Source: Dictyostelium discoideum
Taxonomy: Eukaryota
Direction of reading: 5' to 3'
Assembly: GCA_000004695.1 (NCBI GenBank)
Contig: CM000154.2
Location: forward strand, 2,688,001-2,752,000
Length of the DNA stretch: 64,000 nt
Shown: in pieces, positions 5,534 through 59,556 of the stretch
Position numbering within the stretch: position 1 is the first letter of the stretch
Layout of the letters: the number at the start of each line of letters is the position of its first letter
The notes under the pieces: generated by a model
Told to the model about the DNA's origin: nothing
Seen by the model: only the letters and a program-made list of their open reading frames with translations
The model's database searches: none
Program-made: the position numbers and the translations under genes

Positions 5534-6066
5534 GTATTTATTAATCTCTCAATAATAAAATAAAAAAACATTTCAAACATGATGATTATACATTATTATA
5601 TTTTTAAAATTTTATATTAACAAAAATGAGTGAGTTAATTTTAAAATAGTAATAAAATATTTCTTAATCATATTTGGTGAATTGTTTATTATTAAAAAAT
5701 ATCTCTTAAAAGATTTCAATAATAATTTAAAATAAAAAAAATTGGAAAATAATAAATAAATAAAGAATTGAAAAAATATAAAAAAATGATTATTTTAAAT
5801 TATTTTATTTTAATAATTTCTTATCAATATTTATTAATTGATAACCATCTTGATTTTTCAAAAAAAAAAATAAAAAAATAAAAAAAAAAAAAAACATAAA
5901 CAATAAATAAATTAAAATAACAAAAATTTAATATTTAAATAAAAAAAAAGAAAGAAATTAAAATAATTTATTTTTTTATTATTATTATTTTATTTTTATT
6001 ATTTTATTTTTATTTTAGTGTTAGCATTAAATAAATATTAATACAATTGAAGAGTTTTTAAAAATC

Positions 6067-7260
6067 CTATTGTTTTAAAGATAATTCAATGACAGACATT
6101 CTTTTACTATCTGGAAGGATTAAAATTGTATCGATTTTAAATGGTGATTTTTCGAATATAGTTTTCCATTCATTTTGAGATCTCTCTTTACCATTAAAAT
6201 TTACTATCATTTCTAGAAATAATTTTAAAAAAAAAAAAAAAAAAAAATTAATATTTAATTATTATTTTTATAATATATATTAAAAAAATAAATAAAATAA
6301 AATAAAATACATACGTAAATCAAAATAGAATGGAGCATATGGTTGATTTTTTGGTTGAACTATATGATCAAAAACATAAACTTTACCATTTGGTTTAATT
6401 GATTTTGAAATTTTATCCAAAATTGTTAAAACTTTATCATCATTAAACATATGAAAAATAAATTTCAAAGTATAACAATCGGCAGAAGGATAATCAGAAT
6501 CAACAAATAAATCGGAAGCAACTTCAGAATAACGTTTATCAAATTCAGCAGCACCATTTTCATTGTTAACTTTGTTTTGATTAATTACCAATGGTAAATC
6601 GAAATTAATAAAAGATTCAACTAATTGACCTCTTGAACTTTTAGCAATTGATTTTAACAATTCACCAGAAGAACCACCCAAATCAACGATTGATTTATAT
6701 TGATTGAAATCAATATACTCTAAAATTGTTTTAATTTCATCAGAAGTGAAACTAGTCATTGTGTTATGAAAATGGGCGTTCAACGATTTATCTTTTTCAA
6801 AGAGTTCCCATGCACTTGAAAATCCTTGGCTGGTCATACCTTGACTAGTACCGCATTCAATGGTTTTATCTAAATACATAAATGATTGAATTACATTTGG
6901 ATGTGATTGGAGGTACACATTGTTAACCCAGCTATCAGAATTTGAATTTCTAAGTAAATTTGATAATCTTGAATTTCTGAAGACTCCATCCTCCACTTCA
7001 TCTTCAATGAAAATACCAATGGTTGATAATGTTCTTAATAATCTATATAAATTATCACAATTAACTTTTAAAATCTCGGATAATTCTTTACATGATTTTG
7101 ATTTATCTTCCAATAATTGTGGAATTTTATATTTTAATGCACAACTAAGAGCATTTGATTTTGTATACCCAATGGCAACATCAATTAAAAAATTCTTATC
7201 TTGTATTTCTTGCTGTTGTTGTTTAATTAAATTTTCATCACAATCCGAATTTGAAATCAT
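6067..7260 (-). CDS. SAM-dependent O-methyltransferase (class II, COMT-like); 2 exons 7260..6315 and 6212..6067
   Basis: The N-terminal dimerisation region and the SAM-binding motif VDLGGSSGELL are present. The ORF-track protein ends in intron read-through (..FDLR MYFILFYLFF). A GTATGT donor lies at 6314-6309 and an AG acceptor at 6214-6213. The spliced C-terminus reads ..FDLQMIVNFNGKERSQNEWKTIFEKSPFKIDTILILPDSKRMSVIELSLKQ*, matching the conserved OMT C-terminal GKERT..EW..LF..AGF block. Confidence 0.8.
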
Positions 7261-7295
7261 TATTTTTTTTTTTTTTTTTTTAAAAAAAATATTAT

Positions 7296-7344
<49 letters not shown>

Positions 7345-8618
7345 AATAATATATATGTTTGTTGGAAATAATAATAATATAGTAAAAGATAATAATAATT
7401 ATAATTAAATATATTAATATTTTTTTGATTGAATTAAAAATATATTAAAAAAAAAAAAAAAAAATTATTTATAGAATTTAAAAAATTACAAATTGACCAA
7501 TTAAAATTAAAAATGAAAAATGTTTAATGTTTTTTTTTTTTTTATATTTTTACACTTTTTATTTCACCCCCCACTACCATTTTTTTTTTTTTTTTTTTTT
7601 AATAATATTTCATATCTCACACCCCCAAAAAAAACACCAAAAATAATATTTTGCAGACATATTTCATTTTATTTATAATAATCCATTGTAAAAAAAAAAA
7701 AATAAAAAAAAAAAAAAAAAAAAAAAATAATTAAAAAAATAATAAAAAATAAAAATAAAATCACACTAAAACACACATGCACACACTTTGGTACCATCTG
7801 CATTAATTCTTAATTTTAAAATAAATTTATATAATTTTATATGTATTTTTATGTATTTGTATAGAAAATAAAAAAAAAAACAATATAAAAAAAATAAAAA
7901 ACAAAAAAATAAATAAATAAATAATAATTAAATTTTAAAAAAATACTATAAAAAAAATTTTAATGAAATTTTCAACAAACAGATATACTATTATTAACAA
8001 TTCGGTTAATTTAATAGATAAAAACAACACTTTATTTGTTTACAAAATATTATATTTACCTCATATTTATTTAATAATTTAAAGGAGAAGTAATCTCTTT
8101 TGTGTTTATGTAAAAAATTTAGTTTTTAAAAATATTACTTAATATTTTTAAAGCATTACCACCAAAATTTATTTTTAGAAAAAAAAGAAATTGATTTTTT
8201 TTTTTTTTTTTTTTTTTATTTTCATTTTTATTTTTATTTTTTTTTTTTTTATTTTTTTATTTTTTTATTTTTTTTGGATTAATACCCAAACAATAATGAA
8301 GGGGTTTTATTGGTTGTAAATATCTTAAATAATAATGATAATAATAAAAATGATAGTATCATTTTATTATTTTTGTTATTATTATTATTATTATTATTTA
8401 GATATTCAATCAATAATACAAGACTTATTATTTTCTATCTTTATTAGAAATTCATCATCAAAATTTCCGTATTGTTTAATTGGATTTAAAATTGAGATTT
8501 TGATTCAATAATAAAATTAATATGTATTCCATTTTTGGTGAGCACAATTAATACATATTTAAAAGAAAATGTAAAAAAAAAAAATCTGAAATCAGTTGGT
8601 TTGAATTTTCGTGTGATT

Positions 8619-8655
<37 letters not shown>

Positions 8656-8742
8656 GAAAGCAATATCAATATCTTTTAAAATAGGTCATTTTTATAAGAA
8701 ATCCATATTGGGTATTTCCTAAAAAGATAAAATACCAATCAA

Positions 8743-8743
<1 letters not shown>

Positions 8744-8826
<83 letters not shown>
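8744..8826. repeat. (AAT)27 microsatellite in a 2.5-kb divergent intergenic region
   Basis: An uninterrupted aataataat run of about 83 bp lies between the OMT gene start (7260, minus) and the FNIP gene start (9784, plus). Confidence 0.95.
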
Positions 8827-8827
<1 letters not shown>

Positions 8828-8860
8828 GGGGCAATATTATTATTATTTTTCTGAATTATT

Positions 8861-8902
<42 letters not shown>

Positions 8903-9783
8903 TCATCCTCAAAGATATTTTTATTCTCTTTTTTGTTCAAGGTGGTTTCAATAAAAATTAAAAAAAAAAAAAAAAATTAATCTCTCAAGATCAAGATCAC
9001 ATTTTCAGAGAGAGAGAAACTCGGAGTGATAACCAGCTGATTAGTAAAAAATATCTTTTTTTTTTTTTTAAATTATTATAAAAATAAAATTATGATAATT
9101 CGTCAAATTTTGATGAGACAACAATGGGCAAAAAAAAAAAAAAAGAAAAAAAAAAAATAAAATTAAATTTAATTAAAAATAAAAAATAAAAAAACCAATG
9201 AAAATATAAAAAAATTATTTGTGCAGTGTTTGTAAAAAAAAAAAAAAAAAAATTAATTTAATTAAAATTAAATAAATATTAAGACCCATTATTTTTATTA
9301 TTTATTATTTATTATTATTATTATTATAATTAATTTTTATTTTTATTTTTAATTTTAATTTTAATTTTAATTTTAATTAATATTTTTTTTGGAAGGGCCA
9401 AGTTTTTTTTTTTTTTTTATTTTTTTTTTCGAAAATTGTTAACCGTTTATTTTTATAATCAAAAATTTTTTTTTTTTTTTGATATTTGCACAGATCGCAA
9501 ACGTTTTTATAGTAATCATTTGATAAAATAAAAAATAAAATTTTTTTTTAAAAAAAAAAAAACTAAAAATAATTAATTGTTAATTTTAAAAAAAAAAAAA
9601 AAAAAAAAAACGCTTCTCATTGTTTAGATATCTTTAAGATAAAAAAAAATAAAAAAAATAAAAATAATAAAAATAATAATAAAAAAATAAAAATAATAAA
9701 AATAGTAATTAAATAATTTTTTTTTTTTTTTTTTTTCCAATAATAAATCTCAAAATAAAAAATAAAATAAAATAAATTTAAAA

Positions 9784-9926
9784 ATGAAATTATTAAGTTT
9801 TAAAAAGAAACCTTCATTAACAAAAAGTCAAAGTTGTCCAGATAAATTAAAGAATTTAAAAGAACAACAAAAAGATCCAAAGAATGGAGCCAATTATGAT
9901 ACTGCAACAATTAAATCTTATACATT

Positions 9927-9957
<31 letters not shown>

Positions 9958-12087
9958 AGAGAAGATAATAATATGATTAATAATGAAAATGAAGATTTTT
10001 CATTTAATTATTTTGATTATGATGAAGATCAAGAATCAACTTATAGTAGAGAAGAAAGATTATTCTTTTCAATTTGGAGAAATAATAAAATTAAAAGATG
10101 TATTTTCCATCATTTGGAGATATTCAATTTAATGAATAATATTAATGACCCAATTACATTGGACCAATTAAATTTAATTGACTCTGGTAAACTTAGAGAT
10201 TATTGTAAAATTGTAAAGATTGAAAAGAATGAAAAGATTGAATTGCAATGCATGCCAATTCCAAACCATATTGAGAAACTAATATTTTCAAATGAATTTG
10301 ATAAACCAATTAAAGCTGGAACCATTCCTCAATCAGTTGTAGAGATTGAATTTGGTGAGAAATTCAACCAAGTTTTAAAACAGGGTCAACTACCGCCATC
10401 ATTGGAGATTTTGAAATTTGGTAAAAGATTCAACCAAATGGTTACACATTCCACTGGTGAATTGCCAACATCTCTAACTACTCTTATATTCGGTAACAAT
10501 TTCGATCAAATCATTCTAAAGAATTTCATACCACCAAATGTATCAACATTAATATTTGGTTTAAACTTTGATCAACCTTTATCACCTGGTTACATTCCAT
10601 CCAGTGTCACTAAACTTGAATTTCAAGAGAACTTTAATCAACCATTAACCATTGGTACAATTCCAAAAAATGTTAAACATTTGAAAATATTTAGTAAATT
10701 CCCATTAAATCAAGGTGCAATCCCACAAAGTTGTACAACACTATACTATGGTGGTGATTGTAATCAAGGTACAAAGAATATACCAGATTCCGTTAAATCT
10801 TTACATTTCCTTCAATCAATTGATTGTAATAACCTCACTAAAGAAAGATCATTATCAAAATCATCATCATCAATATCATTAGATATTAGTGGTGGTGGTA
10901 GTGGTAGTGGTAGTGGTGTTAATTCAACAACAACAAGTGAAAAAATAACTTTTTTACAACCTGAATCAATTTGTAAATCAGTTACAAATTTAACAATTGA
11001 ATTAAATCAAGGACCACCAAATAAGAAATATTTACCAATGAATTCAGTTACTCAATTGTCACTTGGTATTAATGAATTTAAAAAACCATTGAAATCAAGT
11101 TATATTCCAAATTGTTGTACTTCATTATTATTAAATATTGGTCCAGATTATAAATTTCAACAATTATTATCAAAATCAATACCATCATCAGTTACAGCTT
11201 TACAATTTGGTCCAAATTTTAATTTAACTATTATGCCAAATTCTTTACCAATTCATTTAAGATCAATTGATTTCGGTGATGGTTTTAATCAACAACTCTT
11301 ACAAAATTCTTTACCAACTTTAATTGATTCAATTAAATTTGGTAATTCTTATAATCAACCAATTTCAAATAATGTTTTATCAAATTCAAATTATTTAACA
11401 TCAATTGAATTTGGTAAATCATTTGACCAACCTTTAATCATTGGTAATGGTATTGGTAATTTAAATAATAATAATATAAATAATAATGTTACAAATTCAA
11501 ATTTACCAATAACATTAAATAAATTAAAATTTTCAAAAGATTCAAATTTTAAAAGTTTATTAAAAATTGAATCAGATTCAATGATTGAAGAGATTGAATT
11601 TGGTGATCAATATAATGAAGAATTTAATAATCAATGTTCTTTAGGTTGTACTCATTTACTTTCAATTAAATTTGGTGAAAATTTTAATCAACCAATTAAT
11701 AATTTACCAATTTCAATTAAAAAATTAATTTTTGGAAATTCATTTAATCAATCAATCAAAAATTTACCTGAAAATTTAACATCTTTATCTTTAGGTACCT
11801 CTTTTTCTCAAAATTTAATTAATTTACCAAATTCATTAATTGAATTAAAAATGTTTAATAAGGATTTTTTAAATAATTTAAATTTTAGTAATAATAATAA
11901 TGAAAATAATAATGAAAATAATAATGAAAATAATAATGAAAATAATAATGAAAATAATAATGAAAATAATAATAATACCAATAGTTTCAATGATTTTATA
12001 AAAAATACAACAATTAAGAGAATTAAAGTACCTTGTTTAATTACAACACTAAATTTTATTGTTGAAAAGAATAAATCTAAAAAGTAG
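9784..12087 (+). CDS. FNIP-repeat protein (767 aa), single exon
   Basis: More than 15 tandem ~22-aa repeats carry the motif (I/L)xFGxxFNQ(P/x)(I/L)..(L/I)P.S(L/V), for example IEFGEKFNQVL, LKFGKRFNQMV, LIFGNNFDQII, LQFGPNFNLTI, IEFGKSFDQPL, IKFGENFNQPI. This is the FNIP repeat family that is expanded in Dictyostelium. The N-terminus has polyQ and the C-terminus has an (NENNNE)6 tandem repeat. Confidence 0.8.
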
Positions 12088-12508
12088 TTAAAAAAAAATA
12101 AAAAATAAAAAAATAAAAAAAAAAATAAAACAAGATAAAATTTAAAAATAAAATAAAATTCTTGGACCCAAACTAAATTGTTTTATTTTTTATTTTTTTT
12201 TTTTTTTTTTTAGGTTGGGGTTCTGGAAAAATAAAATGAAAATAAATTATTATTTTTTTTTTTTTTTTTTTTTTTTTAAGTTGTTCGTTGTTAAAATTTT
12301 ATTGTTTTGTAGTTGCTAATAATAATTATACAAATTTGGTGAAGTATAATTTACTGTTAAATAAATCTTATTTCGAGAAATGGAGTAAAAAAAAAGAAGG
12401 TTTTTTTTTTTTTTTTTTTTTTTTAAAAGGGTTAGCCTTAAAGAAATCTCTTTCAAATCCTTTCCATTTATAAATTTTTATTTATTTTATTTTATTTTAT
12501 ATTTTTTT

Positions 12509-14770: not shown

Positions 14771-16435
14771 TAGTTTTTATAAAAATAACAACCAAAGTAC
14801 TCCACTTCCAGATATTCAAAAACTCTTTGAAAATACTAAAATTCGTTATTTGTAAGTATAAACATTTTTTTTTATTTTTTTTTTATTTTTTTTTTAATCT
14901 CCTTTATTTGGTTATTAATTTTTTTTTTTTCTTTTTAAAAAGAGTTTTACCAAATAATAAATTTAGTGGTAAGATTAGTCCAATTAACATTCCAAGTTTA
15001 ATAAATTTGTAAGTAAAAATTATTTTTATTATTATTGTTATTATTTTTTTTTTTAAAAAAATATAAAAATTTATTAATAATAATTTTTAATTTTAGAGAT
15101 TTATCAAATAATGAACTTGTAGGTAAATTAGGAGATTGGATTTGTGGTATTGATAGTTTAAATGTTCAACATAATATTCTTCAAGGTAATGTTCCAATTT
15201 GTAAAATATGTTATGGTAGTGGTCTTTCATTGATTGAGAATAATAATTATTTCGATAGTAGAGAATGCAACGAAACAATTCTAGAAAGTTTAGACATAAC
15301 TACTAAGGAATATAATATTTCAAAAACAAATGAAGATAAGGATGAAGTTTATTCTATGATCTATGAATATATAGTTAAAGGTGAAGGATTGGCTTATGGT
15401 GAACATAAATTTACAACAAACCTTAATGATTATAATTATACTTTAGGAGGTTGGATTCAAGTTGGGAATACCTATAAACTTAATACCACTAAAATGGTTG
15501 AATCTATTGATTTCTTTTTCAACACATCGTCCCCTTTTTCTGCTACATTTGCAACTAAACCAGATTCAAAACCAAGAATTAACTCAATTATAAAAACAAC
15601 TGATGAAGTCAAGGATCCAAAAACCGATAAATACACAATTGAAGGTATATTTTTCTCTTCATTAATATCTGATGTTTCAGTTTCATTGCTTGAAGAGGGT
15701 GATGACGAATACCTTTCTCATCCATGTAAAGTATCAGAGTCAACATTCTATTCAATCACTGCATCATGTCCAAATGAATTACTTTTAAATTTAATTCAAG
15801 TTAAAGTGGGTCAACTTGATACTGGTCGTGTTGAATTCAATTCATCTTCGTCCTATAGTAAAATGTGTAAATCGGAATGTAGTGATAAAGTAAAAGCAAA
15901 TGGTGGAGGTTGCAATTATGATGTTGGTCTTTGTAAATGTCATAAAAGTAATTGTAGATCGGTTACTGTCGAGGTCACTGGTCAATGTCTCAATGATGAT
16001 AATGGTGATGCCTATTGTAGTTGTAACGAAAGATGGGAGGGTACCCTTTGCGAGATCGGAACTTGTTTTGGTTATGATGGTTGTAATTCTCCAAAAGGTG
16101 AATGTGATAAAGCAACATCAATGTGTCATTGTTTAGATAAAAATTTTAATAATGATTATTGTAATGGTACTAGAACTATTCCAGATGGTAAAAATAACAA
16201 TAATAATAATAACAACAACGGTGGTGATGGAGAAAATGGTCCATCATATGCCGTTGGAGTTATCTTCCTTTTCGTCGTTATCATTGGTGTTGCTATCTTT
16301 ATCTATAAAAGATATATTGATGGTTCCTCAAAATCAACCACTTCAAATGGTGTCAAATTTAAAGTTTTAAGTTCAAAACAAGAAGATGATGAAGAAGATA
16401 ATTTATCAACAACAAGAAAAGGTTATGAAGAATAG
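12736..16435 (+). CDS. Type I membrane protein with a signal peptide, plant-type leucine-rich repeats, a Cys-rich EGF-like region, a TM helix and a short acidic tail. Proposed exons: 12736..12841, 12975..13119, 13200..13349, 13440..13502, 13611..13673, 14147..14221, 14343..14501, 14603..14692, 14774..14851, 14943..15008, 15097..16435
   Basis: Exon 1 encodes MNNNIKYVFLIIVTLVFINNVYS (signal peptide). Exon 2 encodes an LRR N-cap-like ..YYDYCSKPLFKCNSETGHLSG. Then come several 63-90 nt exons, each encoding one LRR-like unit and each ending ..T(T/A)|GTAAGT in phase 2, so the junction codon is Leu/Ile/Val/Phe. Examples are L|VLPNNKFSGKISPINIPSLIN|L and L|DLSNNELVGKLGDWICGIDSLNVQHNILQGNVP. The last exon has six-Cys EGF-like modules (CKCHKSNC.., CSCNERWEGTLCE, CHCLDKNFNNDYC), the TM segment YAVGVIFLFVVIIGVAIFIY and a tail ending ..EDDEEDNLSTTRKGYEE. 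The gene call is solid. Individual acceptor choices for exons 2 and 3 are tentative because alternative in-frame AGs exist. Confidence 0.55.
13857..13944. repeat. (AAT)29 microsatellite inside an intron of the LRR gene
   Basis: An uninterrupted aat repeat. It is read as polyN in one ORF-track frame (13808..14083) but lies between the proposed exons 5 and 7. Confidence 0.9.
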
Positions 16436-44173: not shown

Positions 44174-47100
44174 TTAATTACTTTTAATTTGTTTTGGAGT
44201 TATATCAAGACCAATTACATTTTGAATGAAATCTAAAATATGATGTTGTTTATGATAATGACATTCTAAAATTAATTTTTTAAAACTAATTTTTGAGAGG
44301 AAACCTTTTCTAGCGAATAATAAAGATTTCTTATCGAAAATGAATTGATGATTATAAAAAATATGTTGAAAGATATTAATTCTACCATAGATCGAAGCTT
44401 TTGATAGAAGAGAAGAGAAATGACGTTGACATTGTGAGAAACAAGCTCTAGATTCTCTTTCATCTTTATCGAGTAAAGTTAGTAACTCTGATTGTTGTTT
44501 CATTAGGGGTATACAAGATCTGATGTATTTTTCAAGTGCGACGACATCACCATATTTACCAATATCATCCAATACCAACGCCAAACCAACTGGCATAATT
44601 TTCTTTGAACCTTCATTAGTATCATCATAGTAATAACCTTTTCTTAATACGATATCCAATCTACCAGCTCTGTACAACATATGACTTTGAACGGATTGAG
44701 TTATAACACATCTACCACCAATTAATAAATCTTCACTACGATTTTCAAATATCCAATCAAAGAATCTTTTAAGATGAGTTGATTCTTGAAACATTTGTTC
44801 TGGATAATATTTTAATTCTGTACCTTCCAAAATGGTTGAAAAACTTGAAATTATCTCTTGGAAAATTAATTGTCTCTCTATATTTAAATTTAATAATGGT
44901 TCACCCGATGAAGTAGTTGGTGATAGTATTGCAGAGAGTAATAGAATTTCATTGGTTACAATTGTATATAAACCATATGGATCTTCAACTATATAAGCCA
45001 ACATTTTCAAATAGTTATTATAATTCTTTAAAGAAGAACCCCATTCAAATATGAAATGAAAATCATCGAATGAAGCTCTAACTTTTTTATTTGATACAAT
45101 TATACCTTTATCCATATCATCAAGTACCATTAATTGATCATATTTTCTTAATAGTTCAACATTTTGAAAACCATAAAAATCGGCTGTTAAAGAATTTGAT
45201 TGTGGTAAATAAAAATGATCTCTAAAATTTGAAAAACAAAATTCTAACATTTCAATTGATCTAATAAATCTTGGAATTTTTAAATTATAAATTTCACTAT
45301 TACTTTTTGCAATATAACAAAAATTTGAAATTAATGGAAATTCTTTAATAACAATTGATAATAATTCTAAATTATTATTTTCAATTATTAAATAAAATAA
45401 TAATAATCTATCTAAAATTCCACCAATTACTGTACCACCATTACCATTACCATTACCATTACTATTACCATTTTCAATTGATGAATTATAAATTTTTTTT
45501 ATAAATTTTAATTGTTTATTTAAATTATTTGGTGAAACATATTTAAATAAAAGATTTGGAGTGATTTCATTACGATATTTATTTGAAAGGAAAGCATATT
45601 TCATTTCAACTTCTTTATATTCAATCCAATAACCTGGTGAACCATATTTTAAAGATTGTTTAAAACAATTTGAATCAAAAACTCTGGTTACTCTATAATC
45701 GAATAGATCTTCATCATCCAAGTCTTGATCATAACAATTTTCATTACCATAGATTATTTTATACATAAAATTACAATAAACTTTTAGATGTGGATTAAGT
45801 GAAACGTAAAGTTCAGCTAACCTCTTTATACCATCATAATCTTCTTTTTCACCATCTTTTAATAACTGTTTTTGAATAACCTTTTTAACAAAACAATGTT
45901 TTTCTTCTTTTGTAATTTGAGTTTCAATAAATTCAATCTCTGCCATTGTATTGATTGTAAATGATGCTTGAGTAATCTCTTCCTCTTCTTCATTATCACT
46001 ATCTTCATAATGTCTTTTATAATATTGTTGTTGATATTGATTCTTTAAATCAAATGTAACAATTAGTTTACATGAATTTATTAATTGTTTAATTGTAAAT
46101 TGATTAAATACTGTTTTAGTTTTAATTTTTGAATATTCAATTGTATTATTTGATAAATTTGAATTATTATTATTATTGTTATTATTATTATTGTTATTAT
46201 TGTTATTGTTATTATTATTATTATTATTGATATTATTATTATTATTATTATTAATATTATTATTAAAAGTAAAAGAATTTAATAAATTTGAATAATTGAA
46301 AATTTGATTTTTTAAATTTTTATTAAATTGTAAAATATCATTTTCATTATTATCATTAATTAATTTTGCATCGGCAATTACTAAATTTATAATATTTGAA
46401 TAAGTGAATAATCTTAATTGAATTAATAAATTAATGATTTTAATTGATGGATTATTAATTTTTGAAAACATTTCAATATCAAATGGTTTATTATTTGGAT
46501 TTAATGACATTTGACGATGAATGGTTGTTACGATTAATTTCACCATTTTATAAGACCCACTCTTAATAGCCAATTGTAATGAATGATTCATAACTGGTCT
46601 AAATTGGAATTCCGATATCAATAGCTTTGTTGCAACCAAACAATTACATTCAATAGCTAATGAACCAACTAAATAAATATCGATTGGATATCTTTTATTA
46701 ATTCTATCAAATATGAATTCTGAATAATTTGTAAAGAGGTCCCTATAGAATGACTTATCTTGAATGGATCGAATTGAATTGAAAATCTTTTTAAACATTT
46801 TACAAAATTCATATTTTGTATTTTGATCTTCATCATCATTCACATCACCATCATTAATGGTATTATGATTACAAAATACCAATAAATCACCTCTACTAAC
46901 TTTATATTTTAATAATCCGAAATAATTTGAATCTACAATCCAAGATACATGAATGATTTGATCATATTTAAATGTTTTACTAAATATATAATTATAACAA
47001 TAAAAGAATTTATCATCACTTGAGGTCATTGGTGAGGATGATGATGACGTTGTTGTCATGGTACTTTGTTGTTGTTGTTGTTGTTGTTGCTGTTGATCAA

Positions 47101-48382
47101 AGAAACCACCTCTTGATAAATTACCAATAATCTTTCTAAATAATACAATATTTCTAAAAATTCTCCAAAATAATTGTTCTAAATGTTCAATATCTTTAAT
47201 TGGTAAATCATAGATTGTACTATTGTTTACTAATTTTTTTGAATTTGATTTTTGTTGTTGATTCTTTTCACTTTGATATTCTCTATACTTTTGTTTCTTT
47301 TTCTTATGATTTTCAATGAATGATTTAATCCTCTGAAATGTTTCACCCTTTGTATTGTTACCCATTGGGACACCCAAAGTTTTACCAATTTTTCTTAATT
47401 CCACTGCTGTTAATTTCTCTAATTTTCTAATATCAATACCTTTTAAAATATTATCTAAATAAATTTCATCATCTTTATATTCATCATTATGATATTCTTT
47501 TTTTCTTTTTAATCTTCTTAATTCATTAATTCTTTCATTTTCTGTTTGTTGTTGTTGTTGTTCTTGTTGTTGTTGTTGTTCTTGTTGTTGTTTTGGTTTT
47601 AACTGTTGGTGTATTTGTGGTAATAATGGTATTGGTGGTGGTGGTGGTTGTTGTTGTTGTTGTTGTTGTGGTGGTGGTTGTTTAGATTTTTGTTGAATTT
47701 GTTGTAAAGATTGTGAAGAAAGTTGTTGTTGTAATTGTGATTGAGATGATTGCTTTTTTAATTGTGATACATGAATTTGTTGTGAGAATCTATTATTTGG
47801 TGGTACGAAATTTTGATGAGTATTTATTAATTCTTGATAATCATTATGTCTCTCTAATAAATCTAATTGCTCTTGATTTCTTCTTTGTAAAAGTTGTTGT
47901 CTCTCTAAAATTTGTTGTCTTTGAATTTGTTGTTGAATTTCAATTTGAGTTTGATACTCTTCTTTTGAAATCTTTAAATTATTAATATCATTATCATTTT
48001 CATTTGAATTATTATTATTAGGAAGAGGAGAAGGAGTAGAAGAAAGAGAAGGAGTATTTAAATTATTTTGAATAATTAAATTATTTATAATTGGTGGCGA
48101 TACAATTTGTGGTGGTTGTACAGTTGTTGTGGTTGTTGTGGTTGTTGTGGTTGTTGTTGTAGTTTTTGTTGTTGGCAATATTGTTGGAGGTGCTATTGTA
48201 GTTGTTTGTGGTGGTGATGGTGGTGATGGCGGTGATACAATTTGTGGTGGTTGTACAGTTGTTGTTGTTACATTAGATATTGGTTTTGGTTGGAAAATGT
48301 TTTCATTATTTTTTATAAAATTTATTTGTGGTGGTGCCACAGTTGTGGTATGAGGTTTTTTCGAAGCCTCTATATCTTTCAT
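44174..48382 (-). CDS. Large low-complexity protein (1402 aa) with a SAP DNA-binding motif; function unknown
   Basis: Single long ORF. The N-terminus has Thr/Pro repeats (TVQPPQIVSPP twice, Thr14). There are polyQ blocks and a SAP-like helix-loop-helix LEKLTAVELRKIGKTLGVPMGNNTKGETFQRIKSF. A central polyN (>40 residues) is present. The C-terminal 600 aa is non-repetitive (..YPIDIYLVGSLAIECNCLVATKLL.., ..GRCVITQSVQSHMLYRAGRLDIVLRKGYYYDD..) with no motif I can assign. Confidence 0.7.
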   Translation of the reverse strand: MKDIEASKKPHTTTVAPPQINFIKNNENIFQPKPISNVTTTTVQPPQIVSPPSPPSPPQTTTIAPPTILPTTKTTTTTTTTTTTTTTVQPPQIVSPPIINNLIIQNNLNTPSLSSTPSPLPNNNNSNENDNDINNLKISKEEYQTQIEIQQQIQRQQILERQQLLQRRNQEQLDLLERHNDYQELINTHQNFVPPNNRFSQQIHVSQLKKQSSQSQLQQQLSSQSLQQIQQKSKQPPPQQQQQQQPPPPPIPLLPQIHQQLKPKQQQEQQQQQEQQQQQTENERINELRRLKRKKEYHNDEYKDDEIYLDNILKGIDIRKLEKLTAVELRKIGKTLGVPMGNNTKGETFQRIKSFIENHKKKKQKYREYQSEKNQQQKSNSKKLVNNSTIYDLPIKDIEHLEQLFWRIFRNIVLFRKIIGNLSRGGFFDQQQQQQQQQQSTMTTTSSSSSPMTSSDDKFFYCYNYIFSKTFKYDQIIHVSWIVDSNYFGLLKYKVSRGDLLVFCNHNTINDGDVNDDEDQNTKYEFCKMFKKIFNSIRSIQDKSFYRDLFTNYSEFIFDRINKRYPIDIYLVGSLAIECNCLVATKLLISEFQFRPVMNHSLQLAIKSGSYKMVKLIVTTIHRQMSLNPNNKPFDIEMFSKINNPSIKIINLLIQLRLFTYSNIINLVIADAKLINDNNENDILQFNKNLKNQIFNYSNLLNSFTFNNNINNNNNNNINNNNNNNNNNNNNNNNNNNNNNSNLSNNTIEYSKIKTKTVFNQFTIKQLINSCKLIVTFDLKNQYQQQYYKRHYEDSDNEEEEEITQASFTINTMAEIEFIETQITKEEKHCFVKKVIQKQLLKDGEKEDYDGIKRLAELYVSLNPHLKVYCNFMYKIIYGNENCYDQDLDDEDLFDYRVTRVFDSNCFKQSLKYGSPGYWIEYKEVEMKYAFLSNKYRNEITPNLLFKYVSPNNLNKQLKFIKKIYNSSIENGNSNGNGNGNGGTVIGGILDRLLLFYLIIENNNLELLSIVIKEFPLISNFCYIAKSNSEIYNLKIPRFIRSIEMLEFCFSNFRDHFYLPQSNSLTADFYGFQNVELLRKYDQLMVLDDMDKGIIVSNKKVRASFDDFHFIFEWGSSLKNYNNYLKMLAYIVEDPYGLYTIVTNEILLLSAILSPTTSSGEPLLNLNIERQLIFQEIISSFSTILEGTELKYYPEQMFQESTHLKRFFDWIFENRSEDLLIGGRCVITQSVQSHMLYRAGRLDIVLRKGYYYDDTNEGSKKIMPVGLALVLDDIGKYGDVVALEKYIRSCIPLMKQQSELLTLLDKDERESRACFSQCQRHFSSLLSKASIYGRINIFQHIFYNHQFIFDKKSLLFARKGFLSKISFKKLILECHYHKQHHILDFIQNVIGLDITPKQIKSN

Positions 48383-51033: not shown

Positions 51034-51645
51034 CTAATCGTCAATTGACAAATCAATCAATTGTTCAAATGTTAAATGTTTAAGATCTTCAAATGTTTGC
51101 ACATCGACAATATCAAAACGAGCTCCTTCCTTCTTTAAATTATCATCTAATTTCTTTAAAAATTTAGAAGCTGATCTATCATTACCAATTTGAATGAATG
51201 AAATTGAAAGATCTTCATCTCTATTAAGTTTTTTAGTTGTTGATATAATTAATTTTTTAACATCGGATTCAGAGTTTGGAATACCGTCAGTAATAACCAA
51301 AATAGTTTCTGGTTTATTACCTTTTACAAAGTGATCATTAATAGCTTGGTTTAAAACACCATATAAATCTGTAGTACCACTTGGTTTTTCTCTTGCAAAT
51401 AATCCCATTACTGTTTGTGCATCTCTAATATTTTCATATTTTGGATGTCTAGAACTTGGACTTCCAAAGAAATAAATATTAATACCATCTGGATCTGCTC
51501 CACATGCAAATGGTGCAATTTTTGCTACTGCTGCTTCACATTGTTTCCATAAACCACCACTCATACCTAGGATTATATAAATAAATAAATAAAAAGACAA
51601 GGTTTAATATGTAATTAGTTACATTTAAATAAGTTATAATAGATC

Positions 51646-53185: not shown

Positions 53186-53244
53186 TCGGCCACATAAATA
53201 CCAAATTAATTCGATTCAATTAGTTGAATTTAAAGTTATTGGCC
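53186..53244 (+). repeat. 59-bp dispersed, partly palindromic repeat (copy 1); copy 2 at 58201..58259
   Basis: 53186 TCGGCCACATAAATACCAAATTAATTCGATTCAATTAGTTGAATTTAAAGTTATTGGCC versus 58201 TCGGCCACATAAATATCAAATTAATTCGATTCGATTAGTTGAATTTAAAGTGATTGGCC differ at 3 of 59 positions. The GGCC termini and internal AATTAATTCGATTC / GATTAGTTGAATT arms are inverted-repeat-like. The two copies bracket the two membrane-protein genes. Confidence 0.75.
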
Positions 53245-53294
53245 CTTCTTCTGAATTAAACATTATTTGTGAAAAAACTGATACAATTGGACCA

Positions 53295-55346
53295 TTGGTG
53301 ACTTCACTATTGGCATATAACCCGGAAACACTATCGTATGGTAAATCTGTTGAAGTTGGGTTTGAAATACATTTTAAAGACGATTTAAATGGTATTGCTG
53401 ATATTAATTTTACTATAATCTCAGACAAAGATAAAAATGGTTTTGATTTTAATTGTAAGCCACCAGAAATAAAAAATACTCATACATGTTCTCCAAGATG
53501 GAATGTAACCATACCACAGACATTTTACATATCCCAAATGTCCACAATAGATAGCAAGGGTTATTCAACTGAATATCCTAATATTAATAAAGTAAACCCA
53601 ATGATGGAAATTGTAGAAACTGATTATAATAAACTGATAGTTACAAGTAGTGGTGAAATGGACACAGATATCCCAACGTTGGTTCATTTCATTTCTAATA
53701 TATCATATATAAATAATCAATCAGATAGATCGATTTTAGTTAACTTTACTATTGAAGATACCAATAGTGGTGTTTCAATTAAATATCAACCAACAATTTA
53801 TACAATCCCAGATACTTTGAATATTCTTTCATTTCCATGCAAACACGAAGAGGGTTTGATCAACAACACCAAATACCGCCAGGTAAATTTTTACTGCGAG
53901 TTAATGTTACCATATTTATATGGCTATCCAAACGGTTTCTTATTTCAAATTCATGGTGTTTATGATAATCATTTTAATTCTGCAGGTTTTTCTTATGAAA
54001 ATAGCCAAAGATTTGGTTTTTTCATAAATGTTACAGTTGGTGATGATATACCATTCATTGAATCATTTAAAACTGATGAATCATATATAACCTCAAAAGG
54101 TTTTAAATTTGGAATTTCACCTAGTGTAATATATAACTCCAACTTCACACAAGAACTATTAATATTTTCTCCTTCCCCTTTTTTAAATAACAGTTTTATT
54201 CAATTTAAACCAAATTTAACCCAAAACATTATTGGAGAAACTATTTTGATCTACATTAATACCTCGGAAGGAAAATCCAACACTATTTCAATTGAATTGC
54301 CATGTAAAGGAGAGCCATTATGTGGTGGTCAGTCTCAAGGAATTTGCACCCTAATGGGGTGTAGATGTAAACCTGAATATACCGGGACTGATTGCTCATC
54401 AAATATTATTATTATAAATCCAAATATTAACTTAACCGTTTGGTTGTCCAATGGTTTGGTTAAGTTAATATTTGGATTTATAATAATAATATTTGGACAA
54501 TTACCATACACTCACCATCAATCTTTGATTTCTGTTCATTCTTTAAGAGAAGTTGATTTCAATGGTAAATTGGTTAATGAATATATATTTAATAATTGGA
54601 GTTATTATGGTTCAAATAATAGTTTCTCATATATAACAGATGTCAATAATAAAAATGTACCTGATAATAATGTAAAGGTTGAGGTTTTAATTAGACATGA
54701 TAAAGATGGCGGTTTAGTAGAATTTGCCGGCAAAAATGTTCCAATTTTGCTGGGAGCTGTTAAGTATTATTTTTCTCTTTCTAAGTATATATTTAAATCT
54801 CAGTTAAATACATTACATTTGGTAATGCATGCTGCTGTAGAAACTTCACAAAAAGAAAATGTGTGCATGGGTAGTGAGTTTGGAATTGATGGTTTGGAAC
54901 AAGAATCTCAATACTTTAAAGTTCAAATCAATGGTTTTAGTCTATATGGACAATTTATGACAAGAGCAATAATAGATGGTAAATTTATATCAATCAGAAA
55001 CCTACAGGTTAATAGTTCAGATTTTAAAAAATCTTTAAACACCAACACACATTCTCAAATTTATTTTGCAATTGAAATTCCTAATTATGAAATAAGGGCT
55101 GAATTAGATCCAAACTTTAGTGTCCTCTTGGAAAATACCAATAAACCAAATTCTCAAAATTTTGTTTGTGTTGGTGGTAAATCAGGAGGTTTGACATCTC
55201 TGCAAATGATTGGAATTATAATATCTTGTGTGGGAATGTTTGTGGTTGTTATTGTAATAATTTGTTATATTTCATATAAAAAATCAACTTTTCTTCGTGT
55301 TAAAGCAAGATTTGTATCCTTGAAATTAAAAAGTCTCAGAGACTAA
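53295..55346 (+). CDS. Type I membrane glycoprotein with one EGF-like module and a C-terminal TM anchor; 5' end unresolved (no in-frame ATG or signal-peptide exon found)
   Basis: Long ORF with many N-glycosylation sequons. EGF-like CKGEPLCGGQSQGICTLMGCRCKPEYTGTDC. TM segment LQMIGIIISCVGMFVVVIVIICYI, then a short basic tail. The reading frame stays open upstream to a TGA at 53106 without an ATG and runs through the 59-bp repeat at 53186-53244. Confidence 0.5.
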   Translation: MVTSLLAYNPETLSYGKSVEVGFEIHFKDDLNGIADINFTIISDKDKNGFDFNCKPPEIKNTHTCSPRWNVTIPQTFYISQMSTIDSKGYSTEYPNINKVNPMMEIVETDYNKLIVTSSGEMDTDIPTLVHFISNISYINNQSDRSILVNFTIEDTNSGVSIKYQPTIYTIPDTLNILSFPCKHEEGLINNTKYRQVNFYCELMLPYLYGYPNGFLFQIHGVYDNHFNSAGFSYENSQRFGFFINVTVGDDIPFIESFKTDESYITSKGFKFGISPSVIYNSNFTQELLIFSPSPFLNNSFIQFKPNLTQNIIGETILIYINTSEGKSNTISIELPCKGEPLCGGQSQGICTLMGCRCKPEYTGTDCSSNIIIINPNINLTVWLSNGLVKLIFGFIIIIFGQLPYTHHQSLISVHSLREVDFNGKLVNEYIFNNWSYYGSNNSFSYITDVNNKNVPDNNVKVEVLIRHDKDGGLVEFAGKNVPILLGAVKYYFSLSKYIFKSQLNTLHLVMHAAVETSQKENVCMGSEFGIDGLEQESQYFKVQINGFSLYGQFMTRAIIDGKFISIRNLQVNSSDFKKSLNTNTHSQIYFAIEIPNYEIRAELDPNFSVLLENTNKPNSQNFVCVGGKSGGLTSLQMIGIIISCVGMFVVVIVIICYISYKKSTFLRVKARFVSLKLKSLRD

Positions 55347-55898
55347 TATTTCACTAGAAAAAAATTATTAAATAAATCATTTTATGAGAAATTTTATAAT
55401 CGAAATCTCTTTTATTTCGAAAAATGAAATTATTTGATAGAAATTGCATATTTTTTTTAAAGTAAAATTTGAACACAAATTTATTTATTCTTTCATTTCT
55501 TAAAATAATTTTTTCTAATAATTCTTTAATTTTAAAGAAATGATAGAATTATTTGTCCCATACCAAAATTATATATGATAAAATTAATAAAAACAAAAAA
55601 AGAGAAAGTTTTGAAAATGAAATTTTATTAAATGTTTACATTGGACCTATCAGTGAATAATTGAATTAATTCTAAACAAAAAAAAAGTTTTTTTTGAAAA
55701 AGATTGAGTTATCCCGGAGAAGTTCATTTTTTAAACAAAAACAAATTATTTCAAAAAAAGTTTTTTTTTTTTTAAAAAATTCCAAAATCTTTTAGCCAAA
55801 GTTTTTAAAATCTTTTTTTTTTTTTTTTTTTTTTCAAAATTTCAATTTAAAAAAAATAAAGGAAAAAACACACCAAAATTAAATAAGTAAGAATAAAA

Positions 55899-58002
55899 AT
55901 GAAATATTTATTAGTATATTTACACATATTACTATTTTGTTTATTAAAGATCAATAGCCAAAAGTATTGCACTTATAGTGGTGTTGGAGAAGATTATAAT
56001 ATCAAATTTGATGTCTTACAAACAAAGTATGTAATTTTTTTTTTTTTTCTTTCTCTTCTTTTTTTTTTTTTTTTTTTTTAAAAAAAAAACCTAATTATTT
56101 TTTCTTAAACGTTCAAACAGTGGTGGTATTGGTTTTCTATACTCATATTTAAGTGTTATTTTTACAACTTGTAATTATACTATTCCTTGTGGTAGTAATA
56201 GTAATAATGTATTGTGTGGATCATATCATTCAACTGTTCCACGCAAGTATCTTTCATTGGGATTTGTTAATGGCAGTACACATAGTTATAGCAAAGACGG
56301 ACTAATGATAACATATATATCACAGGATACAACAAATGATAATGATTGCAAAAGATATACAACAAATGTGATTTTTCAATGTAGACCAGATGGTGATGTA
56401 TCCGATTCATTAGATGTTGGCATCGACAATATACTTATTGATTCATGTATTGTTGAATTCACACTCTATTTACGTACAGTGTGTCAAACATGTCCAAACT
56501 GTTTAAAAACACATCAAACATCATGTAATGTGAAAAGTGGTTGGTGTACTTGTGATGGTAATACAAAAGGTTTAAATTGTGATCAATTAAATGCAAATAT
56601 ATCATCGGTATTAACACCAACAATTAGTGGTGGTGATGTTATAATGTCTGGTGATTTTTCAAATATTTATAATATTAGCTCAAGTATTACAATTTCAATT
56701 GGTACTTCAATTTGTAATAGTGTTATTTTCTCAAGTAATAAATCACAAATCAAATGTACGATAGGTGCAGGTGAAGGTGATCAACAAATTAAATTATCAG
56801 ATGGAAATGGTGCAACATTAATATATGATGGATTTTATTATAGAGCTCCTTGTTCAGTCGAATGTTCACCATTTGGTAAATGTAATGATCACGTTGGTAA
56901 TTGTATTTGTAATGATGTTGCAATTGGTACAGATTGTAAAACTTTAAATTTACAATTAGATTCAGTAACACCAACATTTGTAACTGGTGGTCAAGTTTAT
57001 TTAAATGGTAATTTCCTAAATGTCAAAGATCTTAGTCTAACTATTAAAATCGGTGATATAGAATGTTCAGATGTTAAATTCAACGATACTAATTTCAAAG
57101 TTTTGCAATGTATAATTCGAAAAGGTGAAGGTATTAAAGATATTATAATATCATCAGGTTTGCTATCATTTTCAAAAGCAAAAGCATTCGAATATCAATA
57201 CTACAAATGTCCACTCAATTGTTCAACACCAAATGGTACTTGTGATAATAATACTGGTAATTGTACATGCCATAATGAACATTTTGGTAATTCTTGTGAA
57301 TTTACTCGATGTCCACTCGATTGTTCGACACCAAATGGTACTTGTGATAATAATACTGGTAATTGTACATGCCATAATGAACATTTTGGTAATGGTTGTG
57401 AATTCACTCAATGCCCACTCTATTGTTCAACACCAAATGGTACTTGTGATATTAATAGTGGTATTTGTACATGTGATAATGAACATATTGGTAATGGTTG
57501 CGAAATTAAATTTATTGAATGTAAACATAAATGTTCAACCAAACATGGAATATGTGATAATGATAGTGGTAATTGTAAATGTGATACTCAAACAAAAGGA
57601 TTAACGTGTGAAGAATCAAGATTATTAATTGAATCATTAGACTCAATCAATTCAAAAGGTGGTACAATAAATATAATTGGTTATTTTGGAAATACAACAT
57701 CATTATTAACAATTAAAATTGGTGAATCACAATGTAAAAATATCAAAGTATTCAATGAAACAACATTAAAATGTGATATTGGTGAAGGTAAAGGTATTCA
57801 TAATATTACAATCATTGATGATGACCTTTCGTTCACAGCAATCAATAAGTTCCAATATCTCGATGAAAAAACAAAAATCTCAAAAATATCGAGAGGTGCA
57901 ATTGCTGGTATTGTTGTTGGTTGTGTTGTTGCTGTTTCATTAATTGGTTCTATTGCTTTTTATTATCATCACAAAAATAAAAAGGTTAATCTTTTCTTCT
58001 AA
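55899..58002 (+). CDS. Type I membrane protein with a signal peptide, MRH-like (mannose-6-phosphate receptor homology) domain, TIG/IPT-like domains, EGF-like repeats and a TM segment; exons 55899..56026 and 56121..58002
   Basis: Exon 1 encodes MKYLLVYLHILLFCLLKINSQ.. with a GTATGT donor at 56027 and an AG at 56119-20 (phase 2, junction Asn). The N-terminal region KYCTYSG..YNIKFDVL..CNYTIPCGS..LCGSY..DGLMITYIS..DCKRYTTNVIFQCRPDG..SCIVEFTLYLRTVC fits the MRH Cys/aromatic pattern. IPT/TIG-like segments follow (ISGGDVIMSGDF..ISIGTSICNSVIFSSNKSQIKCTIGAGEGDQQIKL; VTGGQVYLNGNF..IKIGDIECSDVKF..VLQCIIRKGEGIKDI; INIIGYFGN..IKIGESQCKNIKVFNETTLKCDIGEGKGIHNI). There are five tandem CxxxCSTPNGTCDNNTGNCTCHNEHFGNxCEF EGF-like units. 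The TM segment is IAGIVVGCVVAVSLIGSIAFYY. Confidence 0.7.
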
Positions 58003-58200
58003 AAACTAAAATAAAATTTAACCATTATGGTTTTTTATTACAATAATTAAAATTTCCCAATTATTTTTGATATTTTTCTTTTTTTTTTTTTCTTCCAACT
58101 ATGATTTATTTTATATAATTTTGTGTATTTTTGTGTGCTTTATTTATCTATACTAAATTCATATTAAAAATTAATAAATTTAAATTGTTATCAATTTTTT

Positions 58201-58762: not shown

Positions 58763-59556
58763 ATGTTATCAGAGTTTTTTAATAATATTACCTCATTTTT
58801 TGTTAATATTTTTTCATTATTTGAGGGAAAAAGAAATATAAGAATATTAATGATAGGTTTAGATGGTGCAGGTAAAAATCAATTCAATAGTTTTGATATT
58901 AGAAAAAATAATAATTTAATAAATAATAACAATTCATTTTTTAATTAAAAATTATTTTTTTTAGGCAAATCAACACTTTTATATAAATTAAAATTTGGTG
59001 ATGTTATTAGAACAATCCCAACAATTGGTTTTAATGTTGAAATAAGTATGTATCAATTTATAGGAATAAGATTGTATTAAATAATATATAATATATTATT
59101 TAAATATACATATAAAACAACCAATTTTATTAACATTAATTTACATTTTTTTTTTTTTTTCTATTTCCAAAAGTTGAATATAAAAATTTATCAATGAATG
59201 TATGGGATATAGGAGGTCAAAATAATATTAGAGCGTTATGGCGTCAATATGATCAAAGAACAGATGTATTCATCTTTGTAGTTGATTCTACTGACCGTGA
59301 AAGATTTGATGAAGTTAAACAAGAAATCAAAAATATAATTGAACAAAACAAAAATGAATCAAGTAATGCTTCATTATTAATCTTTGCAAACAAACAAGAT
59401 ATGCTCAATCCAATTACACCTGCAGAATTAGTTAATTCATTGGATTTAAATTCATTAACAAATAAAAAATGGCATGTTCAACCTTGTAGTGCAGTAAGAG
59501 GAGATGGTATTTACGAAGGTTTTGACTGGATAGTATCCAACTCTAGTGGAAAGTGA
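58763..59556 (+). CDS. Arf/Arl-family small GTPase (190 aa); exons 58763..58871, 58965..59045, 59174..59556
   Basis: The spliced protein is [37 protein letters not shown]|[26 protein letters not shown]|[90 protein letters not shown]1 GLDGAGKST, the switch I T in TIPTIG, G3 WDIGGQ and G4 NKQD are all present. GTAAAA and GTATGT donors and AG acceptors restore an Arf-collinear sequence. There is no Gly2, so it is probably not myristoylated and is more Arl-like. Confidence 0.8.

Follow-up and report, generated by a model that had tools for sequence, protein, structure and literature searches.

The DNA analysed here is a stretch of 64,000 nt from the Dictyostelium discoideum genome (contig CM000154.2, positions 2,688,001 to 2,752,000, forward strand; referred to below as the window). 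Its G+C content of about 22% is consistent with Dictyostelium. The subject of this analysis is a two-exon gene on the plus strand at positions 55899-58002, which begins with an ATG at 55899 and whose stop codon ends at 58002. A T-rich stretch separates an open reading frame (ORF) of 60 codons starting at 55899 from a second ORF, of 596 codons, ending at 58002, and an in-frame coding sequence of 2010 nt was obtained once the 94-nt intron 56027-56120 had been removed. The spliced product has 669 amino acids (aa) and matches the hypothetical protein DDB_G0289399 of D. discoideum AX4 (P0002 in our numbering of the family proteins) from end to end with 100% identity. Thus, the coordinates given in an earlier description of this DNA, here called the original prediction, correspond exactly to one annotated gene. 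In UniRef, DDB_G0289399 itself bears only the name 'EGF-like domain-contain...'.

From the N-terminus to the C-terminus, DDB_G0289399 consists of a signal peptide, a domain with the mannose 6-phosphate receptor homology (MRH) fold, an epidermal growth factor (EGF)-like module, a TIG domain, a second EGF module, a second TIG domain, four further EGF modules, a third TIG domain, a transmembrane (TM) helix and a tail of 11 aa (Table 1). The full-length structure model has a helix at residues 2-15, and strands after it, in the part encoded by exon 1. The protein holds 52 cysteines and 18 N-glycosylation sequons, numbers which agree with a predicted extracellular or lumenal ectodomain. We conclude that DDB_G0289399 is a type I membrane glycoprotein which carries at its membrane-distal tip an MRH domain (P-type-lectin fold) of the type found in CI-MPR, the cation-independent receptor for mannose 6-phosphate. 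In the following, this domain is called the head, and the EGF and TIG modules between it and the membrane the stalk.

Two alignments of the family were used for the analysis of the head, one of sixteen N-terminal regions (A1) and one of fifteen heads alone (A2). When all PDB sequences were searched with the A1 profile, four matches with E <= 10 were obtained, three of them fragments of CI-MPR (best E 2.4e-6) and one ERLEC1. With the head-only profile A2, the CI-MPR entries 6um1 (E 1.7e-12) and 2v5o (E 1.2e-4) were followed by ERLEC1 (E 0.098) and, as the fourth and last match at E <= 10, by Schlafen-12 at chance level (E 1.1). The A2 profile aligned to 15 successive stretches of CI-MPR, 11 of which were counted by HMMER, and the best single stretch spanned positions 4-139 of the profile. 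The AlphaFold (AF2) model computed from A1 is an all-beta domain with a predicted local distance difference test score (pLDDT) of 78.2 and a predicted template modelling score (pTM) of 0.77. Its nearest folds are domains of CI-MPR and of the cation-dependent receptor (CD-MPR), including the phosphodiester-binding domain 5, and domains of the OS-9, XTP3-B and glucosidase II beta type scored below them.

Eight cysteines of the head (C5, C41, C47, C56, C100, C111, C133 and C145 in mature numbering, residue 1 being Ser20 of the precursor) are conserved in the family alignments, five of them invariantly and the other three in at least 90% of the copies. C111 and C133 align to C119 and C141 of CD-MPR, and also to cysteines of OS-9 and CI-MPR. 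By homology, three disulfides would probably be paired as in CD-MPR and the fourth as in the CI-MPR repeats. The motifs G-x-DYN and SKDGL-ITY-S are also conserved among the family heads. A flattened beta-barrel of about 150 residues, profile similarity to known members and the cysteine framework, which together define MRH domains, were all found in the head, and the near-identical AX4 paralogue DDB_G0287667 (UniRef100_Q54K30) is already named 'MRH domain-containing protein' in UniRef. The MRH-like N-terminus suspected in the original prediction is borne out by the family profile against PDB, by the AF2 model and by the name of this paralogue, and we regard the MRH assignment of the N-terminal domain as secure.

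MRH lectins contact mannose with a tetrad of Gln, Arg, Glu and Tyr, which is common to CD-MPR, to domains 3, 5 and 9 of CI-MPR, to OS-9 and to glucosidase II beta. In bovine CD-MPR these residues are Q66, R111, E133 and Y143. In the HMMER alignment, the C-Q motif of CI-MPR domains 3 and 5, which provides the Gln, falls onto C56-G57, and the column of Gly57 contains G in 10, A in four and V in one of the 15 heads. In CD-MPR, OS-9 and domains 3 and 5 of CI-MPR, the canonical Arg precedes the strand Cys by eight residues; its counterpart in the head is Tyr103, a column with Y in 10 heads, I in three, V in one and F in one. Alignments to CD-MPR and OS-9 with hhalign agreed with this register, with C111 and C133 as anchors and no gap between them: CD-MPR R111 and OS-9 R188 align to Tyr103, and their Tyr (Cys +2) aligns to Val135, which is V, I, L, F, N or, in a single case, Y in the family. 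At the position of the Glu, the alignment columns of the family heads show no acidic residue that is fixed. Judged from these alignments, the tetrad of the carbohydrate-binding MRH lectins is absent from the head. The earlier description of the domain as lectin-like was therefore not upheld, its Gln, Arg and Tyr positions being occupied by Gly57, Tyr103 and Val135. Since the tetrad is not kept, the head resembles the non-lectin MRH repeats of CI-MPR, a receptor in which only domains 3, 5, 9 and 15 recognize carbohydrates and domain 11 binds IGF2 (PMC7481795).

In the Pfam analysis of the whole protein, TIG was found with E 1.1e-12 (48.2 bits against a cut-off of 20.9, in three stretches), EGF_TEN with E 1.5e-10 and EGF_2 with E 1e-4. 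The tandem EGF array alone matched EGF_2 with E 7.3e-10 (39.5 bits against a cut-off of 22.1, in four stretches) and EGF_TEN with E 1.1e-10, and among known proteins SCARF1 was a sequence match of the array (E 3e-4). The isolated modules EGF-a and EGF-b score below threshold (17.4 and 20.2 bits) and retain the invariant Cys pattern. Membership of the stalk modules in the TIG (PF01833) and EGF (PF07974 and relatives) families is supported by these data. The full-length AlphaFold model, which was computed from a family alignment of 14 sequences, has a pLDDT of 76, with values of 84-92 in the TIG regions; the best Foldseek matches of this model were the IPT regions of plexins A2, A1 and A4 and of Met, followed by EGF proteins and IGF2R. 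The TIG-like domains of the original prediction were thus confirmed both by Pfam and by the fold matches to plexin A and Met. A lack of profile or structural support for MRH or TIG domains, which had been named as the outcome that would speak against the proposed architecture, was looked for and is not what we observed.

For the EGF modules, which had been described as five nearly identical units of 32 aa, the module type was correct, and the number, the length and in part the degree of identity have to be revised. There are six modules, four in tandem and two isolated, and the repeat period is 34 aa or 102 nt. Tandem Repeats Finder reported the period of 102 over 57206-57586, as 2.9 copies (91%) and as 3.6 copies (84%). 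Near-identity applies to units 1 and 2 only, which share 96 of 102 nt (94%); at the DNA level, unit 3 is 81-82% identical to units 1 and 2, and the identity of unit 4 to units 1, 2 and 3 is 63-68%.

The TM domain was predicted correctly, the hydrophobicity maximum and the helix of the model being in agreement. The cytosolic tails follow the consensus Y-x-Y-[HRKC]-[KRQ]-N-K-K-[VI]-x-L-F-[MFI], which is C-terminal in 13 of the 16 tails listed and is followed by one to nine further residues in P0003, P0007 and P0036. The TM helix and the tail consensus are kept across four species and are conserved far better than the head. Neither the tail of DDB_G0289399 nor the family consensus contains [DE]xxxL[LI] or YxxPhi, the sorting motifs of the mannose 6-phosphate (Man-6-P) receptors. 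The L-F-[MFI] at or near the C-terminus may be a di-hydrophobic export signal.

Table 1. Features of the DDB_G0289399 gene and its surroundings (positions in the window)
Feature	Position	Residues	Strand	Remarks
Segmentally duplicated block, ~4.9 kb	53239-58102		+	3' 2.1 kb of ComC-family gene, intergenic region, DDB_G0289399
Exon 1	55899-56026		+	start codon, signal peptide, first MRH strands (residues 21-42, plus two bases from codon 43)
Signal peptide	55899-55958	1-20	+	within exon 1
Intron, 94 nt	56027-56120		+	phase 2, T-rich, GTATGT...ACAG
Exon 2	56121-58002		+	includes stop codon 58000-58002
MRH-fold domain, main part	56121-56487	21-165 (whole domain)	+	eight conserved Cys
EGF-a	56491-56586	167-198	+	EGF_laminin E 0.005, below cut-off; Cys, Gly, Trp pattern invariant across family
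Approximate head/stalk breakpoint	56533-56535	~181	+	identity switch in 25-codon windows
TIG1	56587-56850	199-286	+	Ig_TgrO1 E 4.8e-4, 20.7 bits; all-beta, pLDDT 84-92; plexin/Met IPT matches
EGF-b	56851-56943	287-317	+	EGF_2 E 7.6e-4
TIG2	56944-57207	318-405	+	Pfam TIG E 6e-4, 20.2 bits against cut-off 20.9 (borderline); pLDDT ~87-92
EGF array, four units	57208-57618	406-542	+	57208-57309, 57310-57411, 57412-57519, 57520-57618
TIG3	57619-57864	543-624	+	Pfam TIG E 3.2e-8, 33.9 bits, above cut-off
TM helix	57895-57966	~635-658	+	glycine-rich, GxxxG-like small-xxx-small motifs (GAIAGIVVGCVVAVSLIG); Kyte-Doolittle maximum 636-655; predicted helix 637-659
Cytosolic tail, 11 aa	57967-57999		+	HHKNKKVNLFF; family tails compared

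A search with the full-length protein yielded 23 homologues, which belong without exception to strains of D. discoideum and to D. cf. discoideum, D. citrinum, D. dimigraforme and D. firmibasis. Outside D. discoideum, these searches found members of the family only in three Dictyostelium species closely related to it. AX4 has at least the copies DDB_G0289399 and DDB_G0287667 and the more distant DDB_G0276309. DDB_G0287667 has the same architecture as DDB_G0289399 with a head differing at few residues, shares a 90% cluster with P0001 and contains six tandem EGF units instead of four; according to the synteny of its cluster-mates, it is probably located at a locus with PGK, RasGAP and ComC-family genes, which is described below. 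In other strains the genes form tandem arrays, with three adjacent copies at the locus L002 and two, one of them interrupted, at L001. In D. citrinum ACTFIV, ten members with locus tags from 010110 to 010121 were present among the look-up and search results. The length of the EGF array varies between two and nine units in the family. The orthologue with the same head in strain ACTFIT, ACTFIT_001030 (P0025), has seven units compared with four in the AX4 gene of the window. The difference is either a true minisatellite-like change in copy number or an artefact of repeats collapsed in assembling AX4.

The interrupted L001 copy (5420-3451, minus strand) has a head 71.5% identical to that of the window gene, and a single ORF of 67 codons covers its EGF-a and the start of TIG1. 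It is annotated as a gene of 715 aa fused to a 2OG-Fe(II) oxygenase domain and is either a pseudogene or the result of a sequencing error or of faulty gene modelling. Fused gene models were also observed for P0005, P0006, P0021, P0023 and P0032, which come from new strain assemblies with the exception of one from AX4 (DDB_G0276985), and the fusion partners are a 2OG-Fe(II) oxygenase, a ComC_SSD C-terminus, a GTPase or a second copy of the family. Automated architecture counts for this family are therefore unreliable.

The head and the stalk differ strongly in their divergence. When the window protein was compared with the D. discoideum and D. cf. discoideum copies having a complete head, the identity of the heads was 36-58%, that of EGF-a 72-84%, and that of TIG1, EGF-b, TIG2 and TIG3 80-100%, in most cases at least 88%. 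Four copies were then compared by codons on the basis of their contigs, with Nei-Gojobori (NG86) estimates of nonsynonymous (dN) and synonymous (dS) divergence, and identity to three paralogues was followed in windows of 25 codons. For the same gene pairs, dS was 0.71-0.84 in the head, 0.09-0.12 from EGF-a to TIG2 and 0.06-0.29 from TIG3 to the tail. Since the contrast is also seen in synonymous divergence, it exceeds what selection at the protein level would produce. Nucleotide identity is 43-73% through residue 181 and 96-100% from residue 182 onwards. The contrast in dS together with this sharp switch at residue ~181 argues for different histories of the head and the stalk, and suggests that ancient head lineages are carried on a stalk homogenized by gene conversion or recombination. 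Among the adjacent L002 copies, the dN/dS of the heads was 1.1-1.3 in the two computable pairs, and the third pair had no synonymous differences. From TIG3 through the TM helix to the tail, dN/dS was 0.05-0.36 in comparison with the window gene and up to 0.68 among adjacent copies, values which speak for purifying selection on stalk, TM helix and tail.

The window copy lies in a segmentally duplicated block of about 4.9 kb. In unfiltered blastn searches of the locus against the paralogue loci, AT-rich low-complexity matches dominated, and a length-filtered comparison was used. In it, the block matched positions 7389-12508 of the locus L003 from another D. discoideum strain, the identity being 97.1% in an alignment of 4352 bp and 99.8% in one of 896 bp. 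The order of genes in L003 is PGK, an rbx1-type RING gene, a RasGAP gene, a ComC-family gene and then the MRH-TIG-EGF gene, and L001 and L002 are loci of the same type. Given 97.1-99.8% identity to this locus, the window copy is a recent segmental duplicate. The duplication includes part of the ComC-family neighbour: the upstream ORF 53295-55346 (+) encodes DUF7035, DUF7034, DUF7949 and ComC_SSD domains (Pfam) and a TM segment. The full-length ComC-family gene of L003 extends from 5865 to 9448, but homology in the window begins only at 53239, with AT-rich sequence upstream, and the ComC copy in the window is therefore probably 5'-truncated. A ComC_SSD gene adjoins the MRH-TIG-EGF gene in all three strains (L001 12688-19651, L002 17848-22916, L003 5865-9448), in tandem orientation in L003 and the window and in convergent orientation in L001 and L002. 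This adjacency could mean a functional pairing or mere shared ancestry of the locus.

Based on these observations, we moderately favour a function of DDB_G0289399 in recognition or adhesion at the surface, as a receptor whose MRH head is variable and non-canonical. The protein would be displayed at the cell surface, as its architecture suggests, and rigid modules of 500-600 residues would separate the head from the membrane. The head would act there as the ligand-specificity module, with a ligand that would differ between the copies and would probably be a protein or a non-canonical glycan, as for the non-lectin repeats of CI-MPR (domain 11 and IGF2). In such a family, old and strongly diverged head cassettes would be kept, the stalk would be homogenized between copies by gene conversion or recombination, and the length of the EGF array would shift by gain and loss of units; the copy in the AX4 window would descend from the recent segmental duplication of 4.9 kb, in which part of the ComC-family neighbour was included. 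The tail, its L-F-[MFI] motif and the small-xxx-small motifs of the TM helix would serve export or oligomerization, not signalling.

Comparison with known systems shows that the individual parts have relatives and that their arrangement differs. CI-MPR shares with DDB_G0289399 the profile match over 15 successive stretches (E 1.7e-12), the spacing of the eight cysteines, similar in CD-MPR as well, and the type I membrane topology, and most of its repeats, especially domains 11-14, are non-lectin (PMC7481795). However, it has 15 MRH domains in place of one on a TIG/EGF stalk, and in DDB_G0289399 the tail is only 11 aa long and lacks the acidic-dileucine signal, while the Gln, Arg and Tyr positions are substituted. 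In addition, the Dictyostelium family is narrow in species range, multicopy and hypervariable in the head. ELAPOR1, a metazoan type I membrane protein, has no TIG domains, belongs to another lineage and is a conserved single-copy gene. The IPT stalks of plexins and Met and the EGF arrays of SCARF1 and teneurins are similar in the stalk modules only, and DDB_G0289399 has neither the sema/PSI head of plexins and Met nor a kinase or GAP cytoplasmic domain.

Several points weigh against a role as a variable surface receptor. The surface localization is read from the architecture and is to be taken as presumptive. The head dN/dS between distant copies is 0.57-0.88 and thus below 1, and NG86 estimates are rough at dS near 0.8 in an AT-rich genome; the mosaic pattern stands for different histories of head and stalk and is no proof of diversifying selection. 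The assignment of the fold also has a weak side: Pfam gave no MRH, CIMR or PRKCSH match for the N-terminal domain alone, for the whole protein or for any of the 16 family heads, a single-sequence phmmer search of PDB with the N-terminal domain gave chance matches only, and a search of 1.84 billion protein representatives with residues 44-166 gave zero matches, not even to the own family. The MRH domain is detectable solely with the family profile or the structure model and not with a single sequence. Word-index homologue searches with the N-terminal 171 aa or with A2 also returned nothing and are no evidence of absence, as they missed the query's own entry. Since this entry was found by the full-length search, blanks of head-alone searches cannot be read as absence of homologues. 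The tetrad was assessed in sequence alignments, for which the hhalign probability was low (0.8-3%), and Arg102 (in a column that is not conserved) adjoins the canonical Arg position, so that a shifted sugar site may exist. Finally, literature searches with gene identifiers and domain terms found no publication on DDB_G0289399 or its close paralogues: the 'MRH domain-containing protein' of PMC12954983 is a different gene, DDB_G0283243, and DDB_G0276309 appears in PMC6637605 as an entry of a mutant list only.

It is tempting to extend the surface-receptor interpretation to a cassette-type recognition system, in which ancient, diverged MRH heads would set the specificity for self and non-self, prey or symbionts on a gene-converted stalk tuned by its EGF units, possibly with the ComC neighbour as a partner; in this full form we consider the proposal doubtful. 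A special case of the surface receptor, which we think unlikely, would be a kin-recognition or mating-type-like system comparable to TgrB1/TgrC1, with a polymorphic partner that might be the ComC-family neighbour. Like the multicopy, polymorphic Tgr proteins, DDB_G0289399 is a type I membrane protein built on IPT/TIG domains, and its TIG1 matches the Pfam family Ig_TgrO1 below threshold (E 4.8e-4); the strongly diverged head cassettes on a conserved stalk and the differences between strains in copy number and head repertoire would also suit such a system. The relationship to Tgr adhesion proteins raised by the original prediction holds at the level of this domain and fails at full length: none of the 23 full-length homologues is a Tgr protein, although the search relied on shared words and distant TIG kinship could escape it. 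Tgr proteins are not known to have an MRH head or an EGF array. The adjacent ComC_SSD gene, present at the PGK-RasGAP locus (L001-L003) and co-duplicated in the window, would provide a candidate partner. ComC-family genes may be numerous in Dictyostelium, and if this is the case, the adjacency may be inherited with the duplication and have no functional meaning. Moreover, the relative orientation of the ComC gene varies between the loci and the window copy looks 5'-truncated, AX4 has two nearly identical heads, and dN/dS of the heads is mostly below 1.

The divergence of the heads could also be due to relaxed constraint in a fast-evolving, partly decaying family without a specific conserved function. 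The interrupted L001 copy, the several truncated or fused gene models and the head dN/dS of 0.6-1.3 are compatible with decay. However, the window gene has an intact ORF, intact splice sites and a signal peptide, of the eight cysteines in the head five are invariant and three are kept in at least 90% of the copies, and the fold was predicted confidently from the family alignment. Furthermore, the stalk, TM helix and tail are evidently under purifying selection, as judged from the dN/dS range given above for TIG3 to tail (0.05-0.36, up to 0.68), and the tail motif is kept in four species. Decay is in our opinion quite unlikely as an explanation for the family.

The surface-receptor interpretation also has to be weighed against roles inside the cell, one of which is that of an intracellular cargo receptor like the Man-6-P receptors. 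Its head would bind phosphomannosyl (Man-6-P-OMe) or sulphated N-glycans on Dictyostelium lysosomal enzymes and it would sort them from the Golgi to the endolysosomes. The nearest folds of the head, which include the phosphodiester-binding domain 5, and the type I topology with a short conserved tail fit such a function, and Dictyostelium was reported to have no detectable Man-6-P receptor (PMC2114169). We nevertheless regard it as very unlikely. The Gln, Arg and Tyr of the tetrad are replaced across the family by Gly or Ala, by Tyr, Ile, Val or Phe, and by mixed hydrophobic residues, respectively, and neither an acidic-cluster dileucine nor a YxxPhi motif occurs in the tail of 11 aa. Conservation is lowest in the head and the copy number varies between strains, which one would not expect of a housekeeping sorting receptor; the homologues obtained come exclusively from D. 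discoideum and three close Dictyostelium species, and the long TIG/EGF stalk is typical of surface proteins. A quality-control lectin of the endoplasmic reticulum (ER) or secretory pathway, of the kind represented by OS-9, XTP3-B or glucosidase II beta, is extremely unlikely: such domains score below those of CI-MPR and CD-MPR, the eight-Cys pattern and the full-length profile alignment are of the CI-MPR type, the tetrad kept by all these lectins is missing, and a TM anchor and a long TIG/EGF stalk are combined with the lack of a C-terminal ER-retention signal. Both the ER-lectin and the Man-6-P-receptor type of sorting role were rejected on the grounds of the missing tetrad, the lack of sorting or ER-retention signals and the TIG/EGF stalk.

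The combination of MRH, TIG and EGF domains had been anticipated to be notable, an expectation that is weakened by the existing UniRef label of the near-identical DDB_G0287667. Since the combination is thus already in the databases, it is by itself no discovery. What goes beyond the databases is the MRH fold of DDB_G0289399 itself and the apparent absence of the lectin tetrad, as well as the presence of a divergent head cassette on a homogenized, length-variable stalk in a tandem family that varies between strains. MRH domains are known from proteins of trafficking and ER quality control, where they are conserved and act as lectin or ligand modules. Here, the fold tips a TIG/EGF stalk of the surface type, has lost the tetrad and is the most variable part of an amplified family. 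Provided that it is the head that determines specificity, the family would be a tractable candidate for recognition between cells, or of prey or symbionts, in a social amoeba and a clean natural case of head-cassette diversity combined with concerted evolution of the stalk; should the cassette system prove true, the Man-6-P-receptor fold would here serve for the first time as a hypervariable head for recognition. The results have a marginal bearing on the question whether Dictyostelium has a receptor of the Man-6-P type, and DDB_G0289399 is probably not such a receptor.

In the neighbourhood of the gene, an intron-split Arf-family GTPase (Arf E 3e-40) is located at 58763-59556 (+), a vWA-domain protein at 51034-51600 (-), and an ORF of 1402 aa with runs of Gln, Asn and Thr at 44174-48382 (-). 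All three are genes usual for Dictyostelium, and no connection with the MRH-TIG-EGF gene is apparent. At a greater distance, a tblastn match of the head to window positions 15551-15781 (E 0.16) was dismissed, as it falls in the ORF of an unrelated EGF-containing membrane protein. This ORF, at 15035-16435 (+), encodes another single-pass membrane protein with EGF modules, which has a leucine-rich-repeat-like segment at its N-terminus.

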